Assembly (NCBI RefSeq): GCF_964204645.1
Contig: NC_134025.1
Span: 7,502,001 to 7,566,000, forward strand
DNA from: Tubulanus polymorphus
Lineage: Eukaryota; Animalia; Nemertea
Length of the DNA stretch: 64,000 nucleotides
Reading direction: 5' to 3'
The position numbers were made by a program, and so were the translations under genes. The first letter of the stretch is position 1; the number at the start of each line of letters is the position of its first letter. The notes beneath the pieces were generated by a model. That model searched no databases. It was not told the DNA's origin and was given only the letters and a program-made list of their open reading frames with translations. Shown one piece after another: positions 3,405 to 60,903 of this stretch.

Positions 3405-3675
3405 GAACGCAAGAATGGAACTGCATGAGTCAGTTCGAATGCAGGAATGGAACTGCAGGAGTCATTTTGAATGCAGGAATGGAACTGCATGAGTCAGTTC
3501 TAATGCAGGAATGGAACTGCATGAGTCAGTTTGAGGATGCAGGAGTGGAACTGCACGATTCATTTTGAATGCAGGAGTGGAACTGTATGAGTCAGTTCGA
3601 ATATAAGAATGGAACTGTATGAGTCAGTTCAAATGCAGGAATGGAACTGCATGAGTCAATTTTAATGCAGGAATG
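3405..3675. repeat. Minisatellite, about 31-bp unit (gaatgcaggaatggaactgcatgagtcagttc), about 8-9 copies
   Basis: Directly visible imperfect tandem copies. Confidence 0.9.
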
Positions 3676-4160
3676 GTGTGGGAGGGTTTGGTAGGAACAC
3701 AGCGGGACGTACAGTAAAACAAAAATTAATTAAAATGATTTTAAATAAGTATGGATGATATGATGGAACAAATTTTAATTTGCCCAATAAAATAAATAAA
3801 GGGATGAAATGAATTGATGGTTTCTTTTTTTATTTTTAGTTTTTATAATTTTTTCAGGAGAACCGTAAAACTCCCTATAAAACCGGTAGCATCTGGTTTT
3901 ATATTTTTTATTTTTTTTTAAATAAAATTGAAATGCAGGACTGCACGCCCACTGGTTCCTAATGCAAGGGGGTTGAAAGATATTTTGTGGCACCGCGCCA
4001 ACTGCAGACCGACGAAGAAATGAAATGAAACGAAATGAATGAGTTCTTAAAACTCACTTGAGCGATAATAATAATGAATGATGAAAGGAGTGCCGATCTG
4101 CAGACGTGCATGGGCTGATGTTGTTGCCCGGAGTGATGGCGAGTGAAGGGGGATGGATCT

Positions 4161-4900
4161 TTAATTTCTTCTTGCTCTTTTATTTCGTATAAATGTATAA
4201 TTTCCATCAAAGGCCCCTTCAACATCGCGGAGCAATTGCACAGGATCTTTTATGCGGATGTTTCGAGACCAACCAGGGCCGCGTGCAACAAGCTCTACAG
4301 CGGGGGCGGGTGGTACCCCCACTGGAGCGCCCGATGTTCCAGCCTGGGCGGGCATATCATTATTATTAGTTCTTTTTCTTTTTCTTGTAGGATGCACGCA
4401 CACAGGTGGTTGTGGTGGTGGTGGGGGCCCTGGTTGTGGAGCTCCAGGAGCCGCTGAGGACTCCTCATCACTGGACTCCTCAAAATTTGGTTGTGGTGGA
4501 GGAGCCGCACGTTTTGGTGTTCTTTTTTTGTTAGGCCGCCCCGAACCTTCCGTATAATTCACATCTTTCTTATTTTTGCGGGGCGACCTGCGCGGTGCAG
4601 GAGTCTGGACCTGTGGCGCCTCTGTCGGGGCAACCACGGCAGGGGCGACCTCCTGCTTCACGATAACAGGTGGCCCGACCTCCGTATCCGAAGATACGGT
4701 GACCGCAACCACCTGCACCGCAGAAGCAGGGTCCACCACCCGCGGGGGAGCCAACGGTGTTGGTGGATTTGGCTCCCCGTGCTTATGAGACGATAAACGC
4801 TCCACGCACCTTTTTAATCTCCTTTGTAGAAGGGAAGCCGCCTCATAAGCGTGGCCAGACTCATCTTTTCTGTTGACAACATCAATAACAATTGATTCAG
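4161..4900 (-). CDS. Probable terminal coding exon of an unknown Pro-rich, basic (nuclear-type) protein
   Basis: GC-rich open frame of about 245 codons from an acceptor (ttcatttcag near 4901). It contains PRRSPRKNKKDVNYTE, an acidic EESSDEE patch and RKRKR. Upstream exons could not be assembled cleanly. Confidence 0.5.
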
Positions 4901-6189
4901 CTGAAATGAAAAGAAAAACTATTAAGGATCACGAATATTACACATTAATACCACATAGACTTAACGTCTCCACGTCTCCAAATATGCAATTAATTGCCAG
5001 TTTATCTGATTCATTTCTAAATCAAGAGTTCGAAGGCAATTTCAGTTTTGTCATAGTATGTGTTGATACATCAATAATGGTGATGGTATTAGCTTTTGGA
5101 ATGCATAGGTAAAATTGGTTCATACCAATAACTGGAATTATGGTATAGTTCAGGTTTCACAACTACATAAATTTGTTTTGGAATAACTCATAATTTAACA
5201 CTAAAAGAGAAAGCTGATACAGATGTTAATATTATGATCACCTGCCCCAGCCTTACATGTAGATTGTTGCTGAAAAGCTTTCAAATGTATCTTCTTTATT
5301 CCTCATAATTATCAAATTTGATATTATCGTTAATTCATTTTCATAACATTTATAACACCCATTGCTATCAATACAGTTCGGGTATAACTGCAGATGCCTC
5401 TAGGGGTATAAACAAGTATAAACCAAATATCAAGAAAATCCATTATGCATTTCCTCAATCTGTTCTTAATATCTTTTAAGAAAATGCTCAGTAACAAATA
5501 ATCAAGACAAAATAATTACTTTAATTTGTTCATATTCTATTATCTTAACTATAAGGCGCGTTCACACGACGAAATTTAAACCGGCCTAAATTTTAAGTGT
5601 TCACACGGGCAAAAATACCGTTCCAAATTAGACCGGTCTAGTTTAGACCGGTCTAATTTGGCATGGTGTAAAAAAGCGAACCAGGTCCGGACCAAATTTT
5701 GGACCGGTCTAAATAAGTGTGTGTGGACAGAAACTGGTACCAGGTCCGGTGTCACAGTACAAGTGGTATCCCACTCATTACAGGCACCCCCTGATTGCGC
5801 ATGCGCGTGGGATTCCACTGCTTGTTTACCGCAAACGAGTAAAAGCCATCCCCGTACTAGAGGCATCCCCTTCTTTTGTACCAATTCAATTCAATTTATT
5901 GATGCTTTGATTCATCAAACAATTACCAATTATTTATTGTTTGTTTTTGAATAAAATCACTCGCAATGAAAAAAATACTACGTAACAATGCATTCAGTAA
6001 TGAATGCTTCGGCAGTTGCATTTTATAAGCATCAAAACCGTAAATTTAAAAAGTAATCAGACAATTCCGTTTTTTCAAATACTAAAATATATTTTATTTT
6101 CAATATTTAACGATATTTACATTTCCAGTAAAACATAAGAATAACGCATATAAACATGATAACATAAATGATAGTATCTACTAGTATCT

Positions 6190-9100
6190 ATAAAACATGA
6201 TATTAATGATATTTTGAATAAGATACATTCTGATTAACCATTACTTATGACTTAAAAGGAGGGGATGCATGTAATACCGTACCATCTGACAGTATTAGAG
6301 CTACCCCCTAACAGATTGATATTAAAACAACTATTGCAATTAATAACTTCAAAATCTATAATAAAACATGATATTAATGATATTTTGAATAAGATACATT
6401 CTGATTAACCATTACTTATGACTTAAAAGGAGGGGATGCATGTAATACCGTACCAGCTGACAGTATTTGAGCTACCCCCTAATAGATTGATATTAAAACA
6501 ACTATATTGCAATTAATAACTTCAAAATCTATAATAAAACATGATATTAATGATATTTTGAATAAGATACATTCTGATTAACCATTACTTATGACTTAAA
6601 AGGAGGGGATGCATGTAATACCGTACCATCTGACAGTATTAGAGCTACCCCCTAACAGATTGATATTAAAACAACTATTGCAATTAATAACTTCAAAATC
6701 TATAATAAAACATGATATTAATGATATTTTGAATAAGATACATTCTGATTAACCATTACTTATGACTTAAAAGGAGGGGATGCATGTAATACCGTACCAT
6801 CTGACAGTATTAGAGCTACCCCCTAACAGATTGATATTAAAACAACTATTGCAATTAATAACTTCAAAATCTATAATAAAACATGATATTAATGATATTT
6901 TGAATAAGATACATTCTGATTAACCATTACTTATGACTTAAAAGGAGGGGATGCATGTAATACCGTACCATCTGACAGTATTAGAGCTACCCCCTAACAG
7001 ATTGATATTAAAACAACTATTGCAATTAATAACTTCAAAATTTATAATAAAACATGATATTAATGATATTTTGAATAAGATACATTCTGATTAACCATTA
7101 CTTAAAAGGAGGGGATGCATGTAATACCGTACCATCTGACAGTATTAGAGCTACCCCCTAACAGATTGATATTAAAACAACTATTGCAATTAATAACTTC
7201 AAAATCTATAATAAAACATGATATTAATGATATTTTGAATAAGATACATTCTGATTAACCATTACTTATGACTTAAAAGGAGGGGATGCATGTAATACCG
7301 TACCATCTGACAGTATTAGAGCTACCCCCTAACAGATTGATATTAAAACAACTATTGCAATTAATAACTTCAAAATCTATAATAAAACATGATATTAATG
7401 ATATTTTGAATAAGATACATTCTGATTAACCATTACTTATGACTTAAAAGGAGGGGATGCATGTAATACCGTACCATCTGACAGTATTAGAGCTACCCCC
7501 TAACAGATTGATATTAAAACAACTATTGCAATTAATAACTTCAAAATCTATAATAAAACATGATATTAATGATATTTTGAATAAGATACATTCTGATTAA
7601 CCATTACTTAAAAGGAGGGGATGCATGTAATACCGTACCATCTGACAGTATTAGAGCTACCCCCTAACAGATTGATATTAAAACAACTATTGCAATTAAT
7701 AACTTCAAAATCTATAATAAAACATGATATTACTGATATTTTGAATAAGATACATTCTGATTAACCATTACTTATGACTTAAAAGGAGGGGATGCATGTA
7801 ATACCGTACCATCTGACAGTATTAGAGCTACCCCCTAACAGATTGATATTAAAACAACTATTGCAATTAATAACTTCAAAATCTATAATAAAACATGATA
7901 TTAATGATATTTTGAATAAGATACATTCTGATTAACCATTACTTTAAAGGAGGGGATGCATGTAATACCGTATCAGCTGACCGTATTAGAGCTACCCCCT
8001 AACAGATTGATATTAAAACAACTATTGCAATTAATAACTTCAAAATCTATAATAAAACGTGATATTAATGATATTTTGAATAAGATACATTCTGATTAAC
8101 CATTACTTATGACTTAAAAGGAGGGGATGCATGTAATACCGTACCATCTGACAGTATTATAGCTACCCCCTAATAGATTGATATTAAAACAACCAGGGCA
8201 ATTAATAACTTCATAATCCAAAATAAAACATGATATTAATGATATTTTGAATAAGATACATTGTGATTAACCATTACTTATGACTTAAAAGGAGGGGATG
8301 CATGTAATACCGTACCATCTGACAGTATTAGAGCTACCCCCTAACAGATTGATATTAAAACAACTATTGCAATTAATAACTTCAAAATCTATAATAAAAC
8401 ATGATATTAATGATATTTTGAATAAGATACATTCTGATTAACCATTACTTATGACTTAAAAGGAGGGGATGCATGTAATACCGTACCATCTGACAGTATT
8501 AGAGCTACCCCCTAACAGATTGATATTAAAACAACTATTGCAATTAATAACTTCAAAATCTATAATAAAACATGATATTAATGATATTTTGAATAAGATA
8601 CATTCTGATTAACCATTACTTATGACTTAAAAGGAGGGGATGCATGTAATACCGTACCATCTGACAGTATTAGAGCTACCCCCTAACAGATTGATATTAA
8701 AACAACTATTGCAATTAATTACTTCAAAATCTATAATAAAACATGATATTAATGATATTTTGAATAAGATACATTCTGATTAACCATTACTTAAAAGGAG
8801 GGGATGCATGTAATACCGTACCATCTGACAGTATTAGAGCTACCCCCTAACAGATTGATATTAAAACAACTATTGCAATTAATAACTTCAAAATCTATAA
8901 TAAAACATGATATTACTGATATTTTGAATAAGATACATTCTGATTAACCATTACTTATGACTTAAAAGGAGGGGATGCATGTAATACCGTACCATCTGAC
9001 AGTATTAGAGCTACCCCCTAACAGATTGATATTAAAACAACTATTGCAATTATTAACTTCAAAATCTATAATAAAACATGATATTAATGATATTTTGAAT

Positions 9101-11880
9101 AAGATACATTCTGATTAACCATTACTTATGACTTAAAAGGAGGGGATGCATGTAATACCGTACCATCTGACAGTATTAGAGCTACCCCCTAACAGATTGA
9201 TATTAAAACAACTATTGCAATTAATAACTTCAAAATCTATAATAAAACATGATATTAATGATATTTTGAATAAGATACATTCTGATTAACCATTACTTAT
9301 GACTTAAAAGGAGGGGATGCATGTAATACCGTACCAGCTGACAGTATTATAGCTACCCCCTAACAGATTGATATTAAAACAACTATTGCAATTAATAACT
9401 TCAAAATCTATAATAAAACATGATATTAATGATATTTTGAATAAGATACATTCTGATTAACCATTACTTATGACTTAAAAGGAGGGGATGCATGTAATAC
9501 CGTACCATCTGACAGTATTAGAGCTACCCCCTAACAGATTGATATTAAAACAACTATTGCAATTAATAACTTCAAAATCTATAATAAAACATGATATTAA
9601 TGATATTTTGAATAAGATACATTCTGATTAACCATTACTTATGACTTAAAAGGAGGGGATGCATGTAATACCGTACCATCTGACAGTATTAGAGCTACCC
9701 CCTAACAGATTGATATCAAAACAACTATTGCAATTAATAACTTCAAAATCTATAATAAAACATGATATTAATGATATTTTGAATAAGATACATTCTGATT
9801 AACCATTACTTTAAAGGAGGGGATGCATGTAATACCGTATCAGCTGACCGTATTAGAGCTACCCCCTAACAGATTGATATTAAAACAACTATTGCAATTA
9901 ATAACTTCAAAATCTATAATAAAACATGATATTAATGATATTTTGAATAAGATACATTCTGATTAACCATTACTTATGACTTAAAAGGAGGGGATGCATG
10001 TAATACCGTACCATCTGACAGTATTATAGCTACCCCCTAATAGATTGATATTAAAACAACCAGGGCAATTAATAACTTCAAAATCTATAATAAAACATGA
10101 TATTAATGATATTTTGAATAAGATACATTCTGATTAACCATTACTTATGACTTAAAAGGAGGGGATGCATGTAATACCGTACCATCTGACAGTATTAGAG
10201 CTACCCCCTAACAGATTGATATTAAAACAACTATTGCAATTAATAACTTCAAAATCTATAATAAAACATGATATTAATGATATTTTGAATAAGATACATT
10301 CTGATTAACCATTACTTATGACTTAAAAGGAGGGGATGCATGTAATACCGTACCATCTGACAGTATTAGAGCTACCCCCTAACAGATTGATATTAAAACA
10401 ACTATTGCAATTAATAACTTCAAAATCTATAATAAAACATGATATTAATGATATTTTGAATAAGATACATTCTGATTAACCATTACTTATGACTTAAAAG
10501 GAGGGGATGCATGTAATACCGTACCATCTGACAGTATTAGAGCTACCCCCTAACAGATTGATATTAAAACAACTATTGCAATTAATAACTTCAAAATCTA
10601 TAATAAAACATGATATTAATGATATTTTGAATAAGATACATTCTGATTAACCATTACTTTAAAGGAGGGGATGCATGTAATACCGTATCAGCTGACCGTA
10701 TTAGAGCTACCCCCTAACAGATTGATATTAAAACAACTATTGCAATTAATAACTTCAAAATCTATAATAAAACATGATATTAATGATATTTTGAATAAGA
10801 TACATTCTGATTAACCATTACTTATGACTTAAAAGGAGGGGATGCATGTAATACCGTACCATCTGACAGTATTATAGCTACCCCCTAATAGATTGATATT
10901 GAAACAACCAGGGCAATTAATAACTTCATAATCCAAAATAAAACATGATATTAATGATATTTTGAATAAGATACATTGTGATTAACCATTACTTATGACT
11001 TAAAAGGAGGGGATGCATGTAATACCGTACCATCTGACAGTATTAGAGCTACCCCCTAACAGATTGATATTAAAACAACTATTGCAATTAATAACTTCAA
11101 AATCTATAATAAAACATGATATTAATGATATTTTGAATAAGATACATTCTGATTAACCATTACTTATGACTTAAAAGGAGGGGATGCATGTAATACCGTA
11201 CCATCTGACAGTATTAGAGCTACCCCCTAACAGATTGATATTAAAACAACTATTGCAATTAATTACTTCAAAATCTATAATAAAACATGATATTAATGAT
11301 ATTTTGAATAAGATACATTCTGATTAACCATTACTTAAAAGGAGGGGATGCATGTAATACCGTACCATCTGACAGTATTAGAGCTACCCCCTAACAGATT
11401 GATATTAAAACAACTATTGCAATTAATAACTTCAAAATCTATAATAAAACATGATATTAATGATATTTTGAATAAGATACATTCTGATTAACCATTTCTT
11501 TAAAGGAGGGGATGCATGTAATACCGTACCATCTGACAGTATTAGAGCTACCCCCTAACAGATTGATATTAAAACAACTATTGCAATTAATAACTTCAAA
11601 ATCTATAATAAAACATGATATTACTGATATTTTGAATAAGATACATTCTGATTAACCATTACTTATGACTTAAAAGGAGGGGATGCATGTAATACCGTAC
11701 CATCTGACAGTATTAGAGCTACCCCCTAATAGATTGATATTAAAACAACCAGGGCAATTAATAACTTCAAAATCCAAAATAAAACATGATATTTTGAATA
11801 AAATACATTCTGATTAACCATTACTCATGACTTTAAAGGGATGTTATACTGTACCAGCTGACAGTTTTAGAGGTATCGCA
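6190..11880 (+). repeat. Tandem satellite array, 171-bp monomer (164-173 bp variants), about 33 copies
   Basis: cttaaaaggaggggatgcatg recurs at 6251, 6422, 6595, 6766 and onward. Copies are near-identical, with a recurring 7-bp deletion variant. Confidence 0.97.
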
Positions 11881-12072
11881 TTATAGAATGACAGATAAAA
11901 TGATATCAAAACATAAAGGACATTTTTTACTGTCAAACTACCTGACCTGACGATAGTATAGCTCAAAATGATATCACAACTAATTATTAGAATTCATAAC
12001 TGCAAAATAAAAAAATCAACTATGATAATCTTTGGATTCTTACGAAGATACATTTTGTAAAATGACGAAGCA

Positions 12073-15000
12073 TTAGTACGTTGGTTTTAAGCCCTTTTGC
12101 AAAATTTCAATACATTCTTCATCAGATATAACAACATCTGATGGCATAAAGATATTTCCATCAAATTCAGGGTATTTTCTCAAAATACAAGTGGCGTTAG
12201 GGTGGAAATAACCAACTCTCCAGGAATCCCTCTTGCTGGCAGATTTTTTATCAAAGAATTGATAATTTCCATATGAAGCCACAACCAGTCTCGATTTAAG
12301 ATCCGTAGGGCAGCCTTGGCATCGCTTTATTCTCGTCGATCTTTCCTTCATGTAAAATGGCGCTGAAAAATAATACATTATTGATATGTTAAAGCGCTAA
12401 AATGAGACGTGTTACAGCTTTCATGTCGTTATTTTCAAATTACCTATATCTTTTTCTTGTTTACTAGTTCTTTCCTTTTTCGGTAACTCCATCTTTCCGC
12501 CTAGAAAAGTCAATGTAATTGTCAAAAATAACCGATACAGATGTAATAACTAAATTCAAATCTGTGAAAAGTATACCTGTTTCTTTTTTCTTCTTTTTTA
12601 CAGCTTTTCGCATTTTCGTACCTACAAATTGTACACATATATGTATATACAAGACCATACCTCTCCTACTTAATTCGTTATATACGAACATAATTATGTT
12701 CGTGGTCACAAATGCGCTACATCAAATTAGTAATCTGATTGAATAGAATTAAGAAATGCAGAATTAACAGACCTGCAGTTTTGTTGTCACATGCAGTGGT
12801 ATTCTCGAACTCAAAATCACTCGTTTTTCTTCGTTTTGGTGGAACTATGTCTGGTAATTCATTATCTGTAATATAGAAAAACAGGGTACTTTAGGACGAC
12901 TCTATTTCATAGTACTAACTTTCTACTACAGTAGGCCTATCATAATGATTCCTTGGCGAATGTTTGTCTCCATCTGTAATCCATCTTGCAATAAATTATG
13001 GACATTCCCGGTATCCTGACATATTGAACTTACTAGTAACGAACTCTGCATCATGAAGCTCATTTTCATTTTGGACGAGGGACACATCAGGAAAGTTACC
13101 TGAAGAAAAGTTTCTATTCAATTTATCTTCATTCTCCGTTGGTCTTTTACTCTTACTTTAAAATTAGGATTGTGCGCGCGACATGTGTAGTGAGTAGATA
13201 CCTCGGAGCTAGAACCAACTTAATTATTTCTCCTTAGTCTTAACTAAGTACACTGTGAAAAAATTATCATTGATTTTCTTTCGTAAGATTTTTCATCAAA
13301 TTATCCTAAGACTTTAATAACTCCTATAATAATATAATGTTATAAATGGAATCATTCTGGGTAAACCAGGTCGACCAAATGAATCATGCCAGCCAACCGA
13401 TTGGAGTCTTCCCAGTCTTCCTCAAAGTTTGATACATTGTTATGCAACAGCAATTCATTATAACTCACCATTTCCTATAGGATTTCCTTGATTTTCTTGT
13501 TCGCCTGAATAAAAATGAATGCAAATATATTCATTAAAGAATTAATATAATAGATAGAAAAGATATTCGCGAGACTGATCTTTGCTTACTGTCAATAGCT
13601 TTGCAGTACTTGCAAAAAAACATCACACTGCTTGCAATGTTGCTGCCTATCAGGGGTATTTGTCTGTTGTAGCAAGCTAGGTGAAACCACCTAAAGCATC
13701 TATCACAGCCAATCTGATTGAAAATGATAAATCAAATAAACTGGGAACATTTCTAAACATTCACCACGAATAGAAGAAAAATTGTATAATATCAATTAGT
13801 GTCAACGGAAACTTACCCAATCGGTAACATGAATTGAGCTTGCATGACAACATAGACAGCACATCTTTGAAGGATCTGTAGCTATTGAATGAAAATACAC
13901 TGTAATTTCAATTTCAGGTAAAGGAATGTGTATATCTTTATTGCGTACTGTTCACCTTTCTTACCTATCGATCCCATGAGCCACATGGCTATCTCAAATC
14001 GGTACTGATCGATCGCAGAACTAGTATTGTCAAACTCAAGGGTTTCATTTGCCAAAATACTCTCTGCAAACTACAGAATATCGCAGAATATAATCAATTA
14101 TAGTGTGAGGCCTATTTGATTAACAAACACGGTCTCCTGCAAGTTATTTAGATACAGGGTATACCATAATTAAACTTGTTAATATCAATAATATCCCTGT
14201 ATATAAAGTCCTTTCATATACCTTGAGAACAAAGACTCCACATGATGATGAATCTAGCTGCTTTGAGTGTTTGACGGTCCTCAACCTCCAGTTTCCCATT
14301 GACTTGACACTCTTGATGGCGATTGTGTTTTTAAAAACGGTTATCAATTCCTCTTTTAGTTCGCCCAATGAATTGAGATACAAGATCTCTTTCGTATTTG
14401 TCTGTATGATCTGCAGATATAATGAATTTTAAAGCAATTATAAGTTCTATGTTCAGTTCTATGTGATTTGATTAAGTACCATGAGTGTCCAGTGACCACC
14501 ATGTAACAATGGGCATAGCCATACTTCTTTTTCTGCCAATGATCTCTGAAATATAAGAATATCTTTTTAAAAACTGTCACATGAAATGACATTAGATAAA
14601 TCCTTGGATAATACTTCTAACGTTACTTCCTAAGAATTCCAGCTTATTCTATTTCATGGTTACACAAACTTACCAATGCACCCGGCAATCGGCGTCTATC
14701 ACCAAATATCATTGGCGACAAAATATGGCTACTCTGTACTCCAATCGTCTAAAACCATAATGTTTATTTCAATGAATTCAAGAAATTTTCAATAAGCAGT
14801 ACCGCGGTAATTTGTTTAATTGGTACATACGAATGTACACTTCAAACTTTCCATACTTACTTTCGATTCCGTCGAATACTTTAACGTTAAATGATTGAGC
14901 CCTTGAAAAACAGCCTGAAAAAGGAATACGTTTAATCAACCCAGAAAAAATCAAAAAATTGTAAGAGCTTTATACTTACTTCATCATTGAGCTGTTCATT

Positions 15001-18000
15001 TTTTTTTAATGAAAATATTGTCGCATCCGACAACGGTACTCCTCTTACGGTAAACAATTTTCCAAAGTAGTAGTCCTTCGGACCATATTCCCAGGTCGTA
15101 TAAACCACTGAAAGACAGAAATCATACATTCATGATAATTATCATCGCCATTGACTGTGGGCACAATGTGAGAAACTGTTTTCTTACGAGTATCATCTGA
15201 AGGTACTGCTGCTTCTTTTGCGATCGGTACAGACATTTCTATCTCTTCCGTATCACTTATATTTATTATTTCTGTAAATAGACAGGGAATTTATTAAAAG
15301 ATGGGAAAAATGTTTAGAATTTTGTCTATTATACCAACGATATTCTATGTACACACCAGCGTTGTTGTCCACGATGTCGTCACCAGCCTGGACTTCAGTG
15401 TCATCAATTAAACCATCTAGAACAGAATTAATTGACGATGACATTCAACATAATTATTATTTACAAACTTCCCAAATTAATTCATTCATTCTTAAACTTC
15501 TGTTTTATTCTGTACACACCAGCGTTGTTGTCCACGATGTCGTCACCAGCCTGGACTTCAGTGTCATCAATTAAACCATCTAGAACAGAATTAATTGACG
15601 ATGACATTCAACATAATCATTATTTACAAACTTTAGAATTAATTAATTCATTCTTAAACTTTTGTTTTATTCTGTACACACCAGCGTTGTTGTCCACGAT
15701 ATCGGCACCAGCCTGGACTTCAGTGTCATCAATTAAACCATCTAGAACAGAATTAATTGACGATGACATTCAACATAATCATTATTTACAAACTTTAGAA
15801 TTAATTAATTCATTCTTAAACTTTTGTTTTATTCTGTACACACCAGCGTTGTTGTCCACGATGTCGTCACCAGCCTGGACTTCAGTGTCATCAATTAAAC
15901 CATCTAGAACAGAATATAATTGACGATGACATTCAACATAATCATTATTTACAAACTTTAGAATTAATTAATTCATTCTTAAACTTTTGTTTTATTCTGT
16001 ACACACCAGCGTTGTTGTCCACGATGTCGTCACCAGCCTGGACTTCAGTGTCATCAATTAAACCATCTAGAACAGAATTAATTGACGATGACATTCAACA
16101 TAATCATTATTTACAAACTTTAGAATTAATTAATTCATTCTTAAACTTTTGTTTTATTCTGTACACACCAGCGTTGTTGTCCACGATATCGGCACCAGCC
16201 TGGACTTCAGTGTCATCAATTAAACCATCTAGAACAGAATTAATTGACGATGACATTCAACATAATCATTATTTACAAACTTTAGAATTAATTAATTCAT
16301 TCTTAAACTTTTGTTTTATTCTGTACACACCAGCGTTGTTGTCCACGATATCGGCACCAGCCTGGACTTCAGTGTCATCAATTAAACCATCTAGAACAGA
16401 ATTAATTGACGATGACATTCTACATAATCATTATTTACAAACTTTAGAATTAATTAATTCATTCTTAAACTTTTGTTTTATTCTGTACACACCAGCGTTG
16501 TTGTCCACGATGTCGTCACCAGCCTGGACTTCAGTGTCATCAATTAAACCATCTAGAACAGAATTAATTGACGATGACATTCAACATAATCATTATTTAC
16601 AAACTTTAGAATTAATTAATTCATTCTTAAACTTTTGTTTTATTCTGTACACACCAGCGTTGTTGTCCACGATATCGGCACCAGCCTGGACTTCAGTGTC
16701 ATCAATTAAACCATCTAGAACAGAATTAATTGACGATGACATTCAACATAATCATTATTTACAAACTTTAGAATTAATTAATTCATTCTTAAACTTTTGT
16801 TTTATTCTGTACACACCAGCGTTGTTGTCCACGATGTCGTCACCAGCCTGGACTTCAGTGTCATCAATTAAACCATCTAGAACAGAATATAATTGACGAA
16901 GACATTCAACATAATTATTATTTACAAACTTCCAAAATTGATTCATTATGAACTATTGGTTTATTCTGTACATACCAGAGATGTTACTGTCGACTTCCGT
17001 GTCAGCATTTGCCTTCAAACCTTCTAAAACAAAAGATTTTAATTACTTTTCATTATCAGTACATGTCTTCACGAGTATGATGTCTTTAATTCATTAAGAT
17101 ACTCAACTCTTCTTTAGAAGGTTTCTTGGAATATACTCAGTGATTAAATCTCTGGTGGGCATCAAGTGTTTCAAAGACACTTTTCTGCCCAGAGGTCTAC
17201 CATCTTTCAATAATATCGCTGATTTGCCAACAATCTCTTCAATAGTCAACGTCTCCTCGTGGAAGTTAGATTCCAAGAAACCACCTTTCCTCCCAATATT
17301 TTCTGCTTTGTACCTAATATATATACCATATATTCAATGCAACACGTAATAATACATACATAAAACTATAGGCATGGTATGGAACTAATACCTGTAGACC
17401 TTGTCTCCAACTTTGAGGCTCTTCGCTCCTTTATTTTGCCGCCTATCGTAATTAATTTTTTGACGAGTTTGGGCCTTTTCAATATTTTGCCTCGCGGTCT
17501 GTTCAATTTTCTCATGAATGGATAAAATATTGGCTTCAGTATTTCCGTTTTCTTCAACTCCCTGGATATATAAGGTAAATATAGGAAAATGAGACATATT
17601 TTAACAAAATTCAGCATCTTTATACAAAAATTCGAACTGAAAAAATTGATTTTACCGAGTATTCTTCAGTAACCTCTGGTACCTCAATTCCATTCCTGGC
17701 AACTCTTCCATACATAACATAAAACGGAGACATTTTCGTGCTGCTGTGTGGCTTCGTATTAATGGAGTAAGTGGCACTGTTTAAGTAATCGTCCCAATCA
17801 TTTTTTTTAGAATTAACTAAATGCTTTAATCTCCTAAAATACAATAATGTAAGAATGACATAATACATGAAAATAGATCTGTCTGATGTTATATTTCCGT
17901 ATTTTCACGTACTGTTTTAGAGTTTGATTTGTCCGTTCATCGAGTCCATTGGTTTGTGGGTGGTAGGCAGCGGTGACACAATGTTTCGTACCCATCATTT

Positions 18001-21000
18001 TCAATAACTCATCATTCAACTAAAATGAATCAGGATCATTTCACTTATAGTTGTATAGTACTAGTTATACTTATATTGTTATATTGTTATATGATTAAAG
18101 CTGTATAGTTAATTATATAATCATAGTTATATTTATAGTTATAACTATAGTTGTAGTTAAAGATGCTTACTTGAATTTTAGCTAATTTATTAATAATGAA
18201 TAAAATATGAACATTTTCACAAAAATACATAAAACATAAGGTGATCGAAGCTTTAAGATCCCGTAAGAGAATGACAAAACCAATTGTGGGTTAACAAAAA
18301 CCAAAGCTGAGAAATACAACACCAACGTTACTATGATTAAAACACAACCTTAATGTTAAAAAGTTTGACAGTACCTACATACCTTCCTCTGAATTCTGCA
18401 CTTAAAAGAAGACAATATGACATGATTTTCAATGATAACAAGTTCTCTGTGATTTATCAAGAGTCAAACCTACTTGATTATTAAATTCCCTTCCTTGATC
18501 AGACAGGATTCTCTTTGGGGCACCAAATCGATAGTACATCTGTAGGATACACTTTGCAACTTCAGTTGCCGACTTTTGTTTTATCGGGTATGCTTCTACC
18601 CATTTTGACACGTAATCAGTAGCCGTAAATATATACCGGTTTCCATTTTTTGTCATCGGTGCTTCGGTTAGATCAACGCCTACCATTTCCCAGACTTCAT
18701 TAACCTAGAAATAAAAAACAATTAACAATATGGTCTATCGTAATAATAACCTCATAATTAACTTAACTAAATTTCGAAATACAAATCATAAGCTCACAAT
18801 AAAAACGTAGATGGGATAATACTGAGCGCGGCGAAAGCACATGTCATATGTATATAAGGATTGGGGACGAATTTCACTACCTTTTCAACTGTACATATTC
18901 AAATGATAGTAGGGAATTATATCTAGACAGCAGATTTTATATCAACCTTATGAAACATAAGTTATTAATGCAAACCAAAGAGAAAGCCGAACTTAGTAAA
19001 TTGTGAATTTTTATTGGTAAAATTATGAGATTTTTCACTTTTCCTTAGAAATAGCTCGCATGTAAACCTATATTTAATTAGGTATCTACCTACTGTACGT
19101 CGCATATGATGTATCTTTTTATGTACTGTATATATCACTCAAATTGCCTTTGTATTAAGACCAAGAGTTTGTCAAATAAAGTAAAGTAAAGTAAAGTATG
19201 TGAAATAATCTTATACTTGATGTTGGTGAGGGTACATGTAAATTTTATAGAAGAAAAGAGACATTTACCTTAATAGGTTGCAACTCAGAATCGCCCTTCA
19301 GCAATCTCCCAGTTTTGATATTACAGCTTTCACATCCCTTGATCTATTGATTTATTGATGATAAGAAATAAAAAGGCACCTTTAATTGGGTAATAATACA
19401 TGCTCTAATTATTCTATGTTATGTTTAATAATTGTACTGTTACGTAGAATATTCAAACAAATAATATACGGATCAGTTGATCACAATATCCGTGATAAGA
19501 CGATGAGTAAAAATCCCACAATATATGACTGAATCTAAAAGGGTTATTTGATATATGAACTTACCCAGTCTCGCAAGTCATTAGTCATTGAAGGCCAAAA
19601 GTACTTCTCTGCGATCACGGAGAAAGTCTTTTCTAATTTGAAATGGCCTCCTTCAGGACTCGAATGATATGATGTAAAAATCCTTTTTACTTCATCCAAG
19701 GAGCTTACAACTTGGGCATGCTTGCCATTCCGACGAATTCTAAATAGTTGAGTTCCTGCCAAAAACGTAAATTGAAGCAAGATTTATTTTTCAAAACTTT
19801 TATTGATTTTATTTTACCAGAATGAGTTCAAATAGAATAACAAGTTCAATCATTTATATAATATATATCTATCATCAGATTTATGATTATTCGATATTAG
19901 CTGCTTTACTAACTATTGATCGGGACTTGAGATATTTTTCTTAGATATTGAGATTTGATCTTTAATCTATCGATGCAATATCATTATTCATAATTTTGGT
20001 TATGTTCGGTGAAATGGTGGCGCGTAATCTCAAACTCAAGCGGATACAGATCAGTCGTAAGGAAAGATATTCAAACAATTTAAACGCCGGCCCGAACGGC
20101 AAACAACCCTTTTAACCTCTGTGAAAATTGGAAATATAGCTTTTAGAGATACTTCAAAGTTAATAGATATCGCGCGGTTAAAATATGCGGTCCTTGGTTT
20201 CACATCGTCACTGTTCTCTGTTGCGTTCAAAACATCCAAGAATCACCAGCAGATATCTGCATTTCATTTCCTTTAAAATGGTGTTTGAGTTCATCGAGCA
20301 AGGGACTGTAGAACTATATGATATTTAATCTAAACATATGTTTTAAAAAAAGAGTTGAAATTATCGCAAAAATGTGGACCTCGAGGGACCGCCATAAAAT
20401 GGCGCCTATTTATCAAATTTATCAACTTTTAGCATCAAATGCTAAATTTCATGAATCACCCTTAAAGTCGGATAGAATATAGTTCATCAGAATGTATTCA
20501 CTCTAAAATAATCGTTTTAAATCTAAGATTTGGAAGTAATTCTTTTAAATGTTCTAATAGATAGCTCAACTGCTAAATAGAACGGTATAACATGCACATC
20601 CTGTTAAGTTAAATATAATAGTCAATGAGAATACATCTACATAAAAACGTGAATAAGATGATGTCTTATTTTGGAATTATCCAAAAGTGATTTATCTTTG
20701 AATTTTTAATTTGGTTTAGTATCTTTCTATTACGGAACAGCTCTATTAATGCTTTCTCTGGTGCGATGTTAATCAGAATATATCTTCTAAGATACCAAAA
20801 ACCTGTTTGATTTATCAAGTAATACCCTTCTAATTACTGGTACATGGAAACCGCTGTTAAACAACTGTTGTGTTGCGTCGCCTCGTATCAACGTACGTGA
20901 ACATATCATGCCTATCCTAATTGATGGGTACTGCCACGTTCGGGGCCATTAATTTTTACTGCTGACAAAAAGATTCTGACTGAGACACCTGTTCAAGCAC

Positions 21001-24000
21001 GTTGCTATGCATACTAGTCGTATGATTCTATCTACGGTGATTAGAGGCCACAAAATCATAAATTAAAAGTTTTTCACTATCGCAGTTCAGTATAATAGTA
21101 GTCTACTTTAATTTAAATAATAATTGTCCTCCAGTATCTTAATATCATTTTATCAGGGGATAGCTCTAACACTGTCAGCTGGTACGGTATAACATGGATC
21201 CCCTCCTTTAAAGTCATAAGTAATGGTTAATCAGAATGTATCTTATTAAAAATATCATTAATATCATGTTTTATTTTAGATTTTGAAGTTATTAATTGCC
21301 CTGGTTGTTTTAATATCAATCTATTAGGGGGTAGCTCTAATACTGTCAGCTGGTACGGTATAACATGCATCCCCCTTTAAAGTAATAAGTGATGGTTAAT
21401 CACAATGTATCTTATTCAAAATATCAGTAATATCATGTTTTATTTTGGATTATGAAGTTATTAATTGCCCTGGTTGTTTTAATATCAATCTGTTAGGGGG
21501 TAGCTCTAATACTGTCAGATGGTACGGTATAACATGCATCCCCCTTTTAAGTCATAAGTAATGGTTAATCAGAATGTATCTTATTCAAAATATCATTAAT
21601 ATCATGTTTTATTATAGATTTTGAAGTTATTAATTGCCCTGGTTGTTTTAATATCAATCTATTAGGGGGTAGCTCTAATACTGTCAGCTAGTACGGTATA
21701 ACATGCATCCCCCTTTAAAGTAATACGTAATGGTTAATCACAATGTATCTTATTCAAAATATCATTAATATCATGTTTTATTTTGGATTATGAAGTTATT
21801 AATTGCCCTGGTTGTTTTAATATCAATCTATTAGGGGGTAGCTATAATACTGTCAGATGGTACGGTATTACATGCATCCCCTCCTTTTAAGTCATAAGTA
21901 ATGGTTAATCAGAATGTATCTTATTCAAAATATCATTAATATCATGTTTTATTATAGATTTTGAAGTTATTAATTGCAATAGTTGTTTTAATATCAATCT
22001 GTTAGGGGGTAGCTCTAATACGGTCAGCTGATACGGTATTACATGCATCCCCTCCTTTAAAGTAATGGTTAATCAGAATGTATCTTATTCAAAATATCAT
22101 TAATATCATGTTTTATTATAGATTTTGAAGTTATTAATTGCAATAGTTGTTTTAATATCAATCTGTTAGGGGGTAGCTCTAATACTGTCAGATGGTACGG
22201 TATTACATGCATCCCCTCCTTTTAAGTCATAAGTAATGGTTAATCAGAATGTATCTTATTCAAAATATCATTAATATCATGTTTTATTATAGATTTTGAA
22301 GTTATTAATTGCAATAGTTGTTTTAATATCAATCTGTTAGGGGGTAGCTCTAATACTGTCAGATGGTACGGTATTACATGCATCCCCTCCTTTTAAGTCA
22401 TAAGTAATGGTTAATCAGAATGTATCTTATTCAAAATATCTATAATATCATGTTTTATTATAGATTTTGAAGTTATTAATTGCAATAGTTGTTTTAATAT
22501 CAATCTATTAGGGGGTAGCTCTAATACTGCCAGCTGGTACGGTATTACATGCATCCCCTCCTTTTAAGTCATAAGTAATGGTTAATCAGAATGTATCTTA
22601 TTCAAAATATCATTAATATCATGTTTTATTATAGATTTTGAAGTTATTAATTGCAATAGTTGTTTTAATATCAATCTGTTAGGGGGTAGCTCTAATACTG
22701 TCAGATGGTACGGTATTACATGCATCCCCTCCTTTTAAGTCATAAGTAATGGTTAATCAGAATGTATCTTATTCAAAATATCTATAATATCATGTTTTAT
22801 TATAGATTTTGAAGTTATTAATTGCCCTGGTTGTTTTAATATCAATCTATTAGGGGGTAGCTCTAATACTGTCAGCTAGTACGGTATAACATGCATCCCC
22901 CTTTAAAGTAATACGTAATGGTTAATCACAATGTATCTTATTCAAAATATCATAAATATCATGTTTTATTTTGGATTATGAAGTTATTAATTGCCCTGGT
23001 TGTTTTAATATCAATCTATTAGGGGGTAGCTCTAATACTGTCAGCTGGTACGGTATAACATGCATCCCCTCCTTTTAAGTCATAAGTAACGGTTAATCAG
23101 AATGTATTTTATTTAAAATATCATTAATATCATGTTTTATTTTGGATTTTGAAGTTATTAATTGCCCTGGATGTCTTAAATATCAATCTATTAGCTCTTA
23201 TAATGTCATCGATGTTTTAAAATCATTTTATTTGGAGATAGCTCTAATACTACATCTAGTATAAAATGCACCCCTTACGGTCAAATATGATAGCTGTATC
23301 TAATAATTAAATATTGAATAATATGAAGTTTTCAATTTTCATCTATGTTTTGATATCAAACTATGAGGGAATAGCTCTAATACTGCCATATCTGGTGCCA
23401 TGCTAGATATTACCATTAATCAGAATCTGATTGATGTCGTGTATCATTTTCTTATTTTTAAGTAATTAATTGTCATGATGTTTTGATATCATTCTATTAG
23501 AATAGTACGTCAAATATGCCGCCTCTAAGATTGGCCTTAGTTAAATTAGCCTCAAATACCTGAAAAAAAGCTGTTTGATTTATCAGGGAATACCCCTCAT
23601 AATTGCTGGTGCGTAATTGGCATCCATAGAAACCGCAGTTAAACAACTGTTGTGATGCGTCGCCTCGTTTCAACGCACGTCAACGCATCATAAATTGCTA
23701 CAGTCTTCCTTGGGTACTGCCACTTCCAGGGCCGTAGTACCATTAATTTTTACTCCTGACAAGAAGATACTGATAGAAACACCTGTTCAAGCACGTTGCT
23801 ATGCACAATGAAAATCTAAAGATTTTTACGATCTCCAAAGTTCAGGACCTACGTTTTCATCGAGTTGTGAAAAACGTTGAAACTATTTTTTTTCTAACCA
23901 ATATCCTTTACAAAATACACACAAATTTTCAAATGATTGGTTGAAACATTTTGTTCATTTCTTTTCATCTAAATGACTTATTGAAAACTTTTTTAAAAGA

Positions 24001-24567
24001 AATAACTCATTCAGCTTTATTTGGTCGATCCAGAGTCATGACAAATCTTTTTCCCAACAATTTTAGCTTTGATAATAGCAATAAAACCAAAACGCTTCAG
24101 AATTAAAATGATTGGTCGAACAAATTTTCTCACATTACTTAGTAAATTTTTCTTTAAAGAAATAGTCTTGTTGGATAGATCCTGAATGCCGAAAAATAAT
24201 TTTTATTTGGGCCCAAACAGTTTTCCCAACAATTTTAGTTCGGTAACAAAAATCGCACATTCGGTCACAAACGCTTCAGATTTTCAAATGATTTGTTGGA
24301 ATTTTTCACTCACATATCTATCTAAATTTAATTTAAGTCAAGATATCTTTTTCCTAACTGTATTTATCTATCTCAAAAATAATTTTAAAACACTTTAATG
24401 AATTTTCAAATATTATTTTGAAAAACGAAAATATTTCATTTCCTACCTTGCATGGTAAAATGCTTCGCTTTCTTTCTCAGAGTACACTTCATCGCCTTTG
24501 TAAAATCGGCTGGATATTGGCCATTCAACAGGTAATTAGAAAGGTTCGTTGCTTCAGCAGGATCCAT
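12073..24567 (-). CDS. Ginger1 transposase, multi-exon: HHCC Zn finger + DDE integrase + acidic repeat + Ulp1/C48 protease + PHD + C-terminal Zn finger
   Basis: Exon 1 24567-24447 MDPAEATNLSNYLLNGQYPADFTKAMKCTLRKKAKHF. 19755-19565 and 19343-19269 give YHSSPEGGH...YFWPSM...CESC. 18704-18474 has VGVDL...ILSDQGREF. 18019-17913 has YHPQTNGLDERTN. Further exons at 17833-17656, 17561-17392 and 17313-17108, then ten 60-nt exons. Ulp1 motifs LNDE / GGHWTLM / YLNSL / QLDSSSCGVFVL at about 15108-14222. PHD CLCC..IGCDRCFRWFHLAC..CKYC at 13876-13591. Last exon 12362-12073. GT-AG phases stay compatible throughout. Confidence 0.9.
15345..16975 (-). repeat. Ten tandem 162-163-bp exon+intron units, each with a 60-nt phase-1/1 exon encoding DGLIDDTEVQAG(D/A)DIVDNNA
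   Basis: Unit landmarks at 15351, 15514, 15676, 15838, 16001, 16163, 16325, 16487, 16649 and 16811. The minus strand reads ttctag|ATGGTTTAATT...AACGCTG|gtgtgt. Confidence 0.88.
21150..23200 (-). repeat. Second array of the same 171-bp satellite in reverse orientation, about 12 copies, inside transposase intron 1
   Basis: The reverse complement of the left-array monomer (catgcatcccctccttttaagtcataagtaatgg) is repeated. Degenerate copies extend to about 20560 and about 23500. Confidence 0.96.
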
Positions 24568-27409
24568 TTTTATTGATGATAGTTAAATAAATCGATAAGT
24601 ATATTATCGGAAACAAAAAGCACGGCGCGATTGATTACGGTAAATGCTAGCTATGCTGTCAGAGGATGCCGTTTATACGGCGAAAAGCTGTCTGCTATTG
24701 ACGCATGCGCAGTGCATATTGACGCATGCGCAGTCTGCTATGGGATGCCTGTTGTACGGGGATGCTAGTTGTACTGTGACACCGGTCTAAATCGTGATTC
24801 TGTATCTCAGCGGTAGATGTCGCGACCTCTGCGGTAGAGTGTGAGTCCAGTTTATAAAGTTTTAAATGCTTTTATTACCGTTTATGTACTTATTTTTAAG
24901 TACTGTTTTTCCTCCCTATTCTATAGAAATGTTTGGAGCTTATTCGTATTCGTATATCACGATCATCATCCGTTTTACTGCCGTGCTTTGAACCGTGTTT
25001 AAATGATACTTAGCGTTTCAGCGTGATAGAATAAGTCGAATTCGCAAAAATGTCTAAACCTGACAAAGGATCAAATTGGTCAAATGAAGAATGTCTTGCT
25101 CTACTTCGAATCTGGAAGCAAGACTTCATCCAGTCGCAATTAATTATAGCAGATGGCGACATCTTGTGGGCCCGGTGACAAGCGATTTTATCACCGCGTG
25201 TCAAAACACCGTGTGAATGCTCACCAAAATTTCGTTGGTCTAACTAGTTGTCGTGTGAACGCGACTATAGACAGTACATGGTAAATCATATTCAATTTTC
25301 ACATATTTCAAAGTTTTTTTACATTTTTTTCATGGTAGAAAAACAATGCAAACAATTTGATTCAAATTTCGTACATATTTTTATATATATTTTGTATTAT
25401 GAAAATTGTATTATATTTTTGATAAATTTTCAATTTATATGAACTACATCATAAATAATGGAGCTTGCCTGCCCGGGCAAACCTCCGTTTCCGGAGGTGA
25501 AAAATTGAAACCGAATGACAAATAGTCAGAACTACAGTCCGGAAACGATTGACCGCGGAATTGAGCACGGTTGCTGTAGTTCGCACCTAGTTTCAAGATA
25601 GCCGACACTGAAATATGTAACGACCGAACTATAGTGCCTTTGGTTATAAGCTCCGACCTTTAATCGACTAACAATAAAAACCAGGTTCGACCTGGTTAGA
25701 CAGATTGCCACTCAATTCACTGTTGATTTATTCACATTCAAAACAACCAAGATCTGATACCATGAGCCCTGGATTGATGAAGGATCAGCGACTGGGTCAC
25801 TTCACCTCAATGAAGGCCTATTTCACATAAATTCACAACTTATTCAAATGAGCCACTTACCCCTTGAATATCGAATCCTTCAGACACAGCTTATTTAAGA
25901 ATTCACAGGTTTTTGAGTTGTGGCGATAAACGCAAAAATTTCACACAGACGCAGCACAGGTAAAACTTTATCTCCCAAGACTACATCAAGAGGATATGGT
26001 ACTAGTGGTTCTGATGAAGTTCTGGAGTTGTATTTAACAATGTTCAGCTCATATTTGACATAATCTAAGACAATATTCTGACAAAACGCTACATTTGAAT
26101 ACATTTTAATGTTTGAATACATCTTAGTTTATGTGTATTCCTCTGAAACGGATTTACACCATTTACAAAAAGCGATTTGTCTTGAAATCAAACACCAAAA
26201 TTCATTTTCACTTAAACCCGATTTTAGCTATTCACATAAAATGCTTATCATATGAAAAAAGTACAAAATAAGTTTAGGCCTCATTGAGACCTCACCAAAT
26301 CTTCAAATACTGGGCAGTCATTAGTTTCAACTTTGCAATTGAGAGCAATAAAAAATATACCGACACCAACGCGAATCGAAAAATTGCTTATATTTTCATA
26401 ATTTTCAGTTCTCCTTATGGGAGTATCGATACTGAAAAATACTAATTCAACTTGATAAGATGCTGTTCAATTCAAGTAAAATAATATCACAGCATGATAA
26501 TTCATTTACCATTTTGATTTACATGTATAAGAATTGTACAATGGTGATACAAATAAACAATTCAAGATGGAGGGACGCATCAAGAAACCTGTTAAGGTTT
26601 ATGAAAGTAGTTGATGATATTTACATCAATACAAGCAGCCTATCTGCTTCTCCGCTGTTTAATGATAAGACTTTACAAGGACCACCTACACAGCACTCTC
26701 AAGAGTTCAAATCTAGAAAACGGCTCTATTACTTTCTAGCCCTTGGCCCATAGTATCTACATACCAAGTTTCGTCAACATCGGACAATAATTGTAGGACT
26801 AGTAGCGATTTAAAGATTTTACAAGCGCCACCCGTACAGTGCCCCCTAGAGATCAAATTGGGAAAATGGGTCTATAACAAGATCAGAAAAGAACTGTAGC
26901 ACTAGTAGCAAATTGAAGCAAAAGTTGACGGATGGACGACGATGGATAATCCCCCTAACCCATCAAAACCCACAAAAACTCATTGGAAAGCGGGTTTCAT
27001 TGAATATCCCGCGGCATTTTTGCGGCATAAATACCCACAAGAAAGCCATTTTGTTTCTGATCAAAAAATGTTTTTGGGATGATGAAATAAAGGGTATCAT
27101 AAATGTATAACAAAAATTCAAGACGAGAATAAATATGCAAAATGTACTTATTTTGACCGAGAAACAACAAAGGCTGCCAGTCAGTTATCTTAATTCTGAT
27201 AAGGGCCAATACTTAAGATTCGTTTATTGAATATTGAATTTCAACCAAAAAAATTATTAAGACAATTCTGATTTCTCAATGTATCATTTTATTTAAAATT
27301 TTTTTTTAATTTTATCATTTTATTGAAGTATTCACAAACCGAATTCAGAAACCGAACAATCAACAATCAGCAGTTTGTAGAATAACCAGACAGCTACAGT
27401 TAACAATAA

Positions 27410-27990
27410 TAAGTACTGGGCGTAGATGCGCTGGTATCACTGGTACTGGCTTGATGCACTGGTATGACTGGTACTGGGATGATGCATTGGTATGACTGGT
27501 ACTGGGATGATGTACTGGTATCACTGGTACTGGGATGATGTACTGGTATCACTGGTACTGGGATGATGTACTGGTATCACTGGTACTGGGATGATGTACT
27601 GGTATCACTGGTACTGGGATGATGCACTGGTATCACTGGTACTGGGATGTTACACTGGTATCATTGGTGATGGCTTGATACACTGGTATCACTGGTACTG
27701 GGATGACGTACTGGTATCACTGGTACTGAGATGATGCACTGGTATCATTGGTGATGGCTTGATACGCTGGTATCACTGGTACTGGGATGATGCGCTGGTA
27801 TCACTGGTACTTGGATGATGCGCTGGTATCACTGGTACTGGGATGATGTACTGGTATCACTGGTACTGGGATGATGTACTGGTATCACTGGTACTGGGAT
27901 GATGCACTGGTATCATTGGTGATGGCTTGATACGCTGGTATCACTGTTACTGGGATGATGCGCTGGTATCACTGGTACTGGGATGATTAT
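27410..27990. repeat. Minisatellite, 28-bp unit (atcactggtactgggatgatgtactggt), about 20 copies
   Basis: Directly visible. The unit is not a multiple of 3, so it is likely non-coding. Confidence 0.92.

Positions 27991-29774: not shown

Positions 29775-30223
<449 letters not shown>

Positions 30224-52091: not shown

Positions 52092-60903
<8,812 letters not shown>

Follow-up and report, generated by a model that had tools for sequence, protein, structure and literature searches.

How does a DNA transposon come to carry, well inside its own termini, a satellite whose every monomer holds a likeness of those termini joined to one another? The question is raised by a 64-kb window of the Tubulanus polymorphus genome (64,000 nucleotides of contig NC_134025.1), in which a sequence-only reading had noticed that a 171-bp monomer contains a stretch resembling the right end of the surrounding element followed directly by a stretch resembling its left end. 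That reading had suggested either a head-to-tail array of a 171-bp miniature Ginger element or an amplified circle junction. The features on which our answer rests are collected in Table 1.

Table 1. Positions of the element, its gene, its ends and its repeats within the window.
Feature	Position	Strand	Remarks
Ginger1-type element	5750-24781		19,032 bp; TGTCA at both ends, CCGG on both sides
Left target-site duplication	5746-5749	.	CCGG; paralogous empty host-repeat copies
Left terminus	5750-5772	+	23-nt inverted-repeat core
Further inward-pointing copies of the 16-nt motif	5775-5869	+	5775, 5837, 5854
Left array	6190-11839	+	171-bp monomer; 33.4 copies, 96% matches
First joint-like core	6261-6307	+	right-end-like arm 6261-6284, left-end-like arm 6285-6307
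Decayed monomers	11786-12060	+	inner edge of left array
Transposase gene	13469-19755	-	28 modelled exons, all AG/GT; model partial at 5′ and 3′ ends
Exon-plus-intron unit of 162 bp	15348-16985	-	10 tandem copies, inside transposase gene
Old decayed monomers	20440-20800	-	inner flank of right array
Old direct repeat, copy 1	20701-21011	.	70% identical to 23468-23805
Right array	21139-23194	-	same 171-bp monomer; 12.1 copies, inverted relative to left array
Decayed monomers	23195-23600	-	beside right array
Old direct repeat, copy 2	23468-23805	.	with copy 1 brackets right array
Further inward-pointing copies of the 16-nt motif	24663-24757	-	24663, 24742
Right terminus	24758-24781	-	
Right target-site duplication	24782-24785	.	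CCGG

The element and its arrays

Ginger1 is the DNA-transposon sister of the Gypsy integrases. The element described here is a Ginger1-type DNA transposon by its ends, its target-site duplication (TSD) and its transposase domains. Both ends read TGTCA, in agreement with the TGTNR terminus of the group, and the CCGG on either side is one of the forms of its 4-bp duplication (CCGG or CCGT/ACGG). The two ends are identical at 20 of the 23 positions of the inverted-repeat core, the first 13 perfectly so, with a weak extension to 5805 (77% over about 60 nt). That CCGG is a true duplication follows from contigs of runs X1-X3, in which paralogous host-repeat copies lacking the element have one CCGG, directly followed by the sequence of the element's right flank. 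One X2 contig, from one study, has a different 98-nt flank, likewise ending in CCGG, before the left end, which indicates a second insertion.

The host of the insertion is itself a non-autonomous element, present in high copy number and bounded by short inverted ends (about 5554-5745 and 24786-25266), and its internal repeats are rich in CCGG, the Ginger1 target site. Palindromes of the GCGCATGCG type, which we take to be like an NRF1 site, occur at 5796, 24701 and 24722, near both ends of the Ginger1-type element and nowhere else in the window. Elsewhere the window holds minisatellites with units of 29, 32 and 28 bp and an uninterrupted tract of 89 CTG triplets (2576-2873, 3405-3676, 27425-27987 and 29956-30223), a proline-rich open frame of 255 codons upstream of the element (4161-4928, minus strand), and exon-like frames split by a 209-copy AT run (53170-53882, minus strand), presumably, from their peptide motifs, a gene of the xanthine dehydrogenase family.

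The transposase model reads through 930 codons with no stop and carries an H2C2 finger, a DD35E core, an Ulp1 domain and a PHD finger. When 18 frames were scanned against Pfam, four domain matches passed Pfam's cut-offs, each within a single exon: Integrase_H2C2 (PF17921, E 5.7e-13), rve (PF00665, E 4.5e-13), Peptidase_C48 or Ulp1 (PF02902, 21.4 bits, cut-off 20.7) and PHD (PF00628, 27 bits, cut-off 24). The D-D-35-E triad is present. An H2C2 finger and a DDE core with no reverse transcriptase, together with a C-terminal Ulp1 (or OTU) domain and sometimes PHD, are what characterises a Ginger1 protein, and this is the combination found. Within 11900-21100, 150 homologous proteins matched in a representative protein library, those bearing reverse transcriptase included, align to the integrase region and to one exon of the Ulp1 region only. 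YPYY and GPY/F motifs also belong to the Ginger1 protein; in the 5′-partial gene model a simple pattern gave no GPY/F, though homologues match 17585-17142; a word-index protein search and a PDB sequence search returned no match. The repeated exon between 15348 and 16985 is 60 nt long, of phase 1, and keeps its frame in each copy, so that the ten exons would encode an acidic repeat, 20 residues per unit, lying between integrase and Ulp1. The Ulp1 region has N at what we presume to be an acidic catalytic position.

Inverted tandem repeats lie inside both ends of the element, which is the defining arrangement of a foldback. The two arrays are separated from the termini by unshared DNA, about 0.4 kb on the left and 1.6 kb on the right, and do not begin or end in register with the joint, their edges grading into older copies. 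Since decayed copies trail both arrays, the 171-bp repeat is old in the element. The left and right arrays exchange sequence: of the 11 right monomers that were compared, 3 have identical haplotypes on the left, and an exact inverted match between the arrays extends to 622 bp at its longest. Each copy of the old direct repeat adjoins decayed monomers, marking an earlier and larger duplication, and at 23900-24430 there is another decayed periodic pattern, with a period of about 172-180 bp and no relation to the 171-bp monomer.

Evidence from reads came from contigs of the same three runs, which cover only the left end of the element. All three contain the monomer, the head-to-tail joint between monomers, and monomer variants. 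By contig depth, a rough measure, the monomer in X1 (possibly the source sample) lies at 28-47 times the depth of the left end, near the approximately 45 copies per element expected from the window, so that a large free array elsewhere is disfavoured; the corresponding ratio in X2 and X3 is just 2.6-4.2. Measured against the host repeat, the depth of the GC-rich left end (5746-5942) in X2 and X3 is 6-13 times that in X1, and the left-end contigs of X2 and X3 both stop at 5942, with 5948-6163 lacking cover.

The joint-like core of the monomer

A recount reproduced exactly the matches first seen by eye, 17 of 24 between 6261-6284 and the last 24 nt of the element and 16 of 23 between 6285-6307 and its first 23 nt. 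When the ends were joined into one 47-mer and compared with shuffled monomers, as had been suggested, the observed 33 of 47 was reached in none of 5000 shuffles under any of three schemes (mononucleotide, dinucleotide, and the core alone; maximum 27 in each), and the analytic tail for such a score over 342 positions is about 1e-8. Each half is significant alone, being equalled in 5 and 19 of 5000 shuffles, and a scan of offsets from -8 to +8 gives each half a single peak at 0 (16 compared with at most 9; 17 compared with at most 11). The best joint score elsewhere in the window, outside the element and the windows spanning its ends, is 26. The estimate of about 45 paired-end sites holds as well: 46 cores were counted, 34 on the plus strand in the left array and 12 on the minus strand in the right.

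The terminal bases of the core agree with the proposed joint on one side only. Right halves end in the expected CA in 44 of the 46 cores; left halves begin with TG in none, starting in this register with TC (33) or GC (13). The two halves do abut with neither spacer nor TSD, as had been claimed, in that a joint with no spacer aligns better than one containing CCGG in all nine alignment settings, by 1-10 points, the margin narrowing to 1 in two copies of the right array when gaps are cheapest. A tandem formed by double insertion at one site, which would keep the duplication at the junction, is therefore disfavoured, narrowly so in those two copies. The central 14 nt of the core match the joined terminal 7-mers at 9 positions (P about 0.002). 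Of the six diagnostic bases, from the three positions that distinguish the two ends, five support the right-left order originally read, one is neutral and none opposes it (coin-toss P about 0.06); the right-right and left-left alternatives each score 30.

Variation among monomers can be read in two ways. Where the monomer consensus mismatches the joint, four of five minority alleles carry the joint's base (a small sample, with two transitions), suggesting an ancestor closer to the joint; over the core as a whole, 16 of 21 minority alleles move away from it. The predicted fold of the core, considered with a hairpin function in view, is weak, at -5.3 kcal/mol compared with -16.5 for the joined ends, values computed without a shuffle control.

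Similarity to the ends is confined to 23-24 nt on each side of the core, and the remaining 124 nt of the monomer fell within the shuffle range in six of six comparisons with the element's subterminal DNA. Three bases are common to both arms of the core and found in neither present terminus. The joint therefore does not reproduce the ends of the element as they now stand, and any joint must derive from an ancestral or related element whose ends have diverged since then. A 16-nt motif, corresponding to positions 8-23 of the ends, has five further copies near the true ends. In a profile built from terminal and subterminal copies only, with 5854 and 24742 as training sites, the other copies score 10.1 (5775) and 8.2 (5837), both weak, and 12.3 (24663), and the two arms of the core score 16.9 and 11.3. 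Outside the element, among 89,906 positions, none reaches 16.9 and four reach 11.3, as many as reach 11, the maximum being 15.4. Each arm agrees with a subterminal copy at one position more than with a terminal copy (13 compared with 12, and 12 compared with 11, of 16). The terminal ACA is complete in one arm and partial in the other, and it precedes none of the five subterminal copies.

Proposed origin and possible role of the satellite

The origin that we prefer is an amplified old end-joint, which retains the circle-junction half of the sequence-only proposal and leaves the 171-bp mini-Ginger in a weak position. After excision, the two ends of an ancestor or relative would have been joined to each other with no target DNA between them, and a short fragment across this joint would have been captured near one end. 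Tandem amplification of the unit would have followed, then a copy at the opposite end in inverted orientation, and homogenisation both inside each array and from one array to the other, a step in part directly visible. Loss of the left TG would have prevented the cores from being cut as ends, allowing the array to persist. Arms bearing the end motif may load transposase near both ends and aid their pairing in so long an element, as in Muta1 and Galileo. By analogy with such elements, the subterminal satellite of this foldback-type Ginger1 may serve as a set of cleavage-dead transposase-binding sites. The combined reading, in which the core would be a decayed joint relic that now provides uncuttable pairs of binding sites, is tentative, falling somewhat short of probable.

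Several observations count against this combination. A joint of this very element should extend its similarity past 23-24 nt, and no such similarity was found; the right-left score of 33 is barely above the 30 of either alternative; the depth ratios in X2 and X3 are low; and the arms are not preferentially kept in nine decayed copies. In those copies the arms keep 143 of 220 positions (65%) and the rest 466 of 694 (67%; Fisher P 0.57). With no extra conservation of the core, a neutral passenger becomes a close rival, one in which a captured joint was carried along while its arrays grew by unequal exchange and were homogenised as inverted repeats. The divergence of about 30% between core and ends, the minority alleles that mostly move away from the joint, and the tendency of the element to gather tandem repeats anyway (the periodicity of about 175 bp at 23900-24430 and the 162-bp exon repeat) also suit such a passenger, which leaves unaddressed why arrays stand at both ends in symmetric orientation and why the end-motif score of the stronger arm is reached by no position outside; moreover 7.7 kb of repeat should burden a cut-and-paste element. 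We regard it as rather unlikely; were the arrays neutral, they would still clearly exemplify a satellite arising within a transposon. A little less likely again is the more ambitious proposal that Ginger1 domesticated its own circle joint, with about 45 cleavage-dead paired-end sites whose copy number tunes transposase at the true ends. If true, the amplified joint would be a loading platform or a built-in titration brake for transposase, and the satellite would be fossil evidence of precise Ginger1 end joining after excision.

Because the 16-nt motif has further copies near the ends and the arms are closer to the subterminal ones, it is a live alternative that no joint ever formed and that a segment of one end was duplicated by fold-back, giving the subterminal binding motif as an inverted pair. 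The two ends being inverted copies of each other, such a pair would resemble a joint in any case; the three arm bases absent from both termini and the scores of 30 for right-right and left-left speak for it and count against a joint, as does one old decayed copy (23235-23274) that keeps both arms around a centre of 8 nt instead of 14. The exact 7+7 spacing with its 9 of 14 central matches, the right-left order of five of six diagnostic bases, and the want of a preceding ACA in all five subterminal copies point the other way and make this origin distinctly improbable. More improbable still is a mobile 171-bp unit that, once excised as a circle, underwent rolling-circle amplification and was integrated as a head-to-tail concatemer. 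A miniature element may have only its ends in common with its parent, and no TSD stands between the units here; Bari1 arrays also lack TSDs and have defective ends and a partial last unit, according to the available text of PMC5932611. The absence of the left TG from all 46 cores, where a mobile unit would have intact TG and CA ends, and array edges out of phase with the joint weaken the idea, the 124-nt remainder unrelated to subterminal DNA tells against it, and the inverted second array is left unexplained. No solo dispersed monomer with a 4-bp TSD occurs within the 64-kb window, and neither a solo 171-bp unit nor a right-left joint at 5750 appears among the 18 of 140 loose ends listed for the X1-X3 contigs, a type of assembly that drops rare forms; left-end contigs of these runs begin at or before CCGG. 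Least credible of all is a chance likeness of a GC-rich palindromic patch or an assembly artefact. The comparison was picked after looking, and the 622-bp inverted match could reflect mis-assembled array interiors; the analytic tail, the maximum of 27 for the shuffled GC-rich core, and the recurrence of monomer, head-to-tail joint and variants in three runs leave it very little room.

With a candidate binding motif, a likely end-joint fossil and an open transposase in hand, the end requirements and excision products of Ginger1, of which we found no description in the literature examined, become testable. The preferred origin also suggests a route to satellite DNA, a joint fragment amplified inside a live element, that we did not find among the routes listed in the reviews consulted.

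Comparison with known systems

The element shares with the Ginger1 transposons of the founding paper (Bao et al. 2010, PMC2836005, from the text available) its TGTNR ends, 4-bp CCGG duplication, spliceosomal introns and an H2C2 and DDE integrase-like transposase with Ulp1 and PHD. It falls outside their descriptive ranges in length, 19.0 kb compared with 2.6-7 kb (2.7 times the longest), and in introns, at least 27 compared with 0-4; its inverted repeat has a 23-nt core, with 77% identity over about 60 nt, and theirs measure 40-270 bp. Inverted internal satellite arrays are a feature of our element and not of those described there; in its main text the words tandem, satellite, foldback and circular each occur zero times. 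Relatives were sought in viral contigs by end pattern (no matches) and by integrase exon (no loci with DNA), and of 532 metagenome stretches the 80 best (34-50% identity) included none with Ginger1-type ends or a match to the monomer.

The sequence-only reading knew of no description of the arrangement for Ginger, in agreement with the full-text literature that we compared, which covers also PMC6431247, PMC8268682, PMC6839031, PMC12628747, PMC9659126 and PMC10045372 in the parts available: no foldback Ginger, TSD-less junction array or internal satellite with a right-left joint as its unit was found there, and Repbase and supplements may already hold such a case. The available part of an oyster table has one 1736-bp satellite annotated as Ginger1, without structure. 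Foldback arrays and TSD-less junction arrays are already known in other superfamilies, and as far as we found are new for Ginger.

The architecture is that of foldback elements such as Muta1 (PMC5499845), Tetris (PMC4079207) and Rehavkus (PMC12581902), though the element is Ginger1 by ends, TSD and domains, so that foldback architecture is extended to an integrase-type superfamily. As described in the accessible text of these papers, all three have inverted tandem arrays inside both ends, with units partly derived from the ends (37 bp of the Tetris TIR-220 are common with its outer TIR) and evolving in concert. In contrast to our element, they and Galileo (as cited in PMC4079207) have been placed in the MULE or P superfamilies, and the units of Muta1, Tetris and Rehavkus carry direct copies of an end, whereas ours hold an inverted pair in the geometry of an end-to-end joint, in arrays set off from the termini by unshared DNA. 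In Muta1, binding and excision rise with the number of subterminal repeats (PMC5499845, available text).

Tandem transposon arrays (Bari1, hobo and P dimers), in the text available of PMC5932611, have head-to-tail end junctions like that in the core. Those arrays are whole elements free in the chromosome; here a 47-nt core lies in a 171-bp unit inside an autonomous element. Bari1 junctions lack TSDs and have defective terminal repeats, defects that the authors tie to persistence of the arrays, arguing for quicker loss of tandems whose ends are intact. No Ginger circle was found in the literature searched or in this analysis. Precise end-to-end joints in animals, like the proposed origin of the core, are known from hAT episomes and V(D)J signal joints and can reintegrate in vitro, and perfect joints are the most abundant among Hermes episomes in houseflies (PMC2803484, available text). 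Zero-spacer Hermes joints reduced canonical transposition in vivo (PMC2803484), so binding at the cores might hinder rather than help. The hAT episomes are transient extrachromosomal molecules of another superfamily, whereas the joint-like core of the present element is chromosomal.
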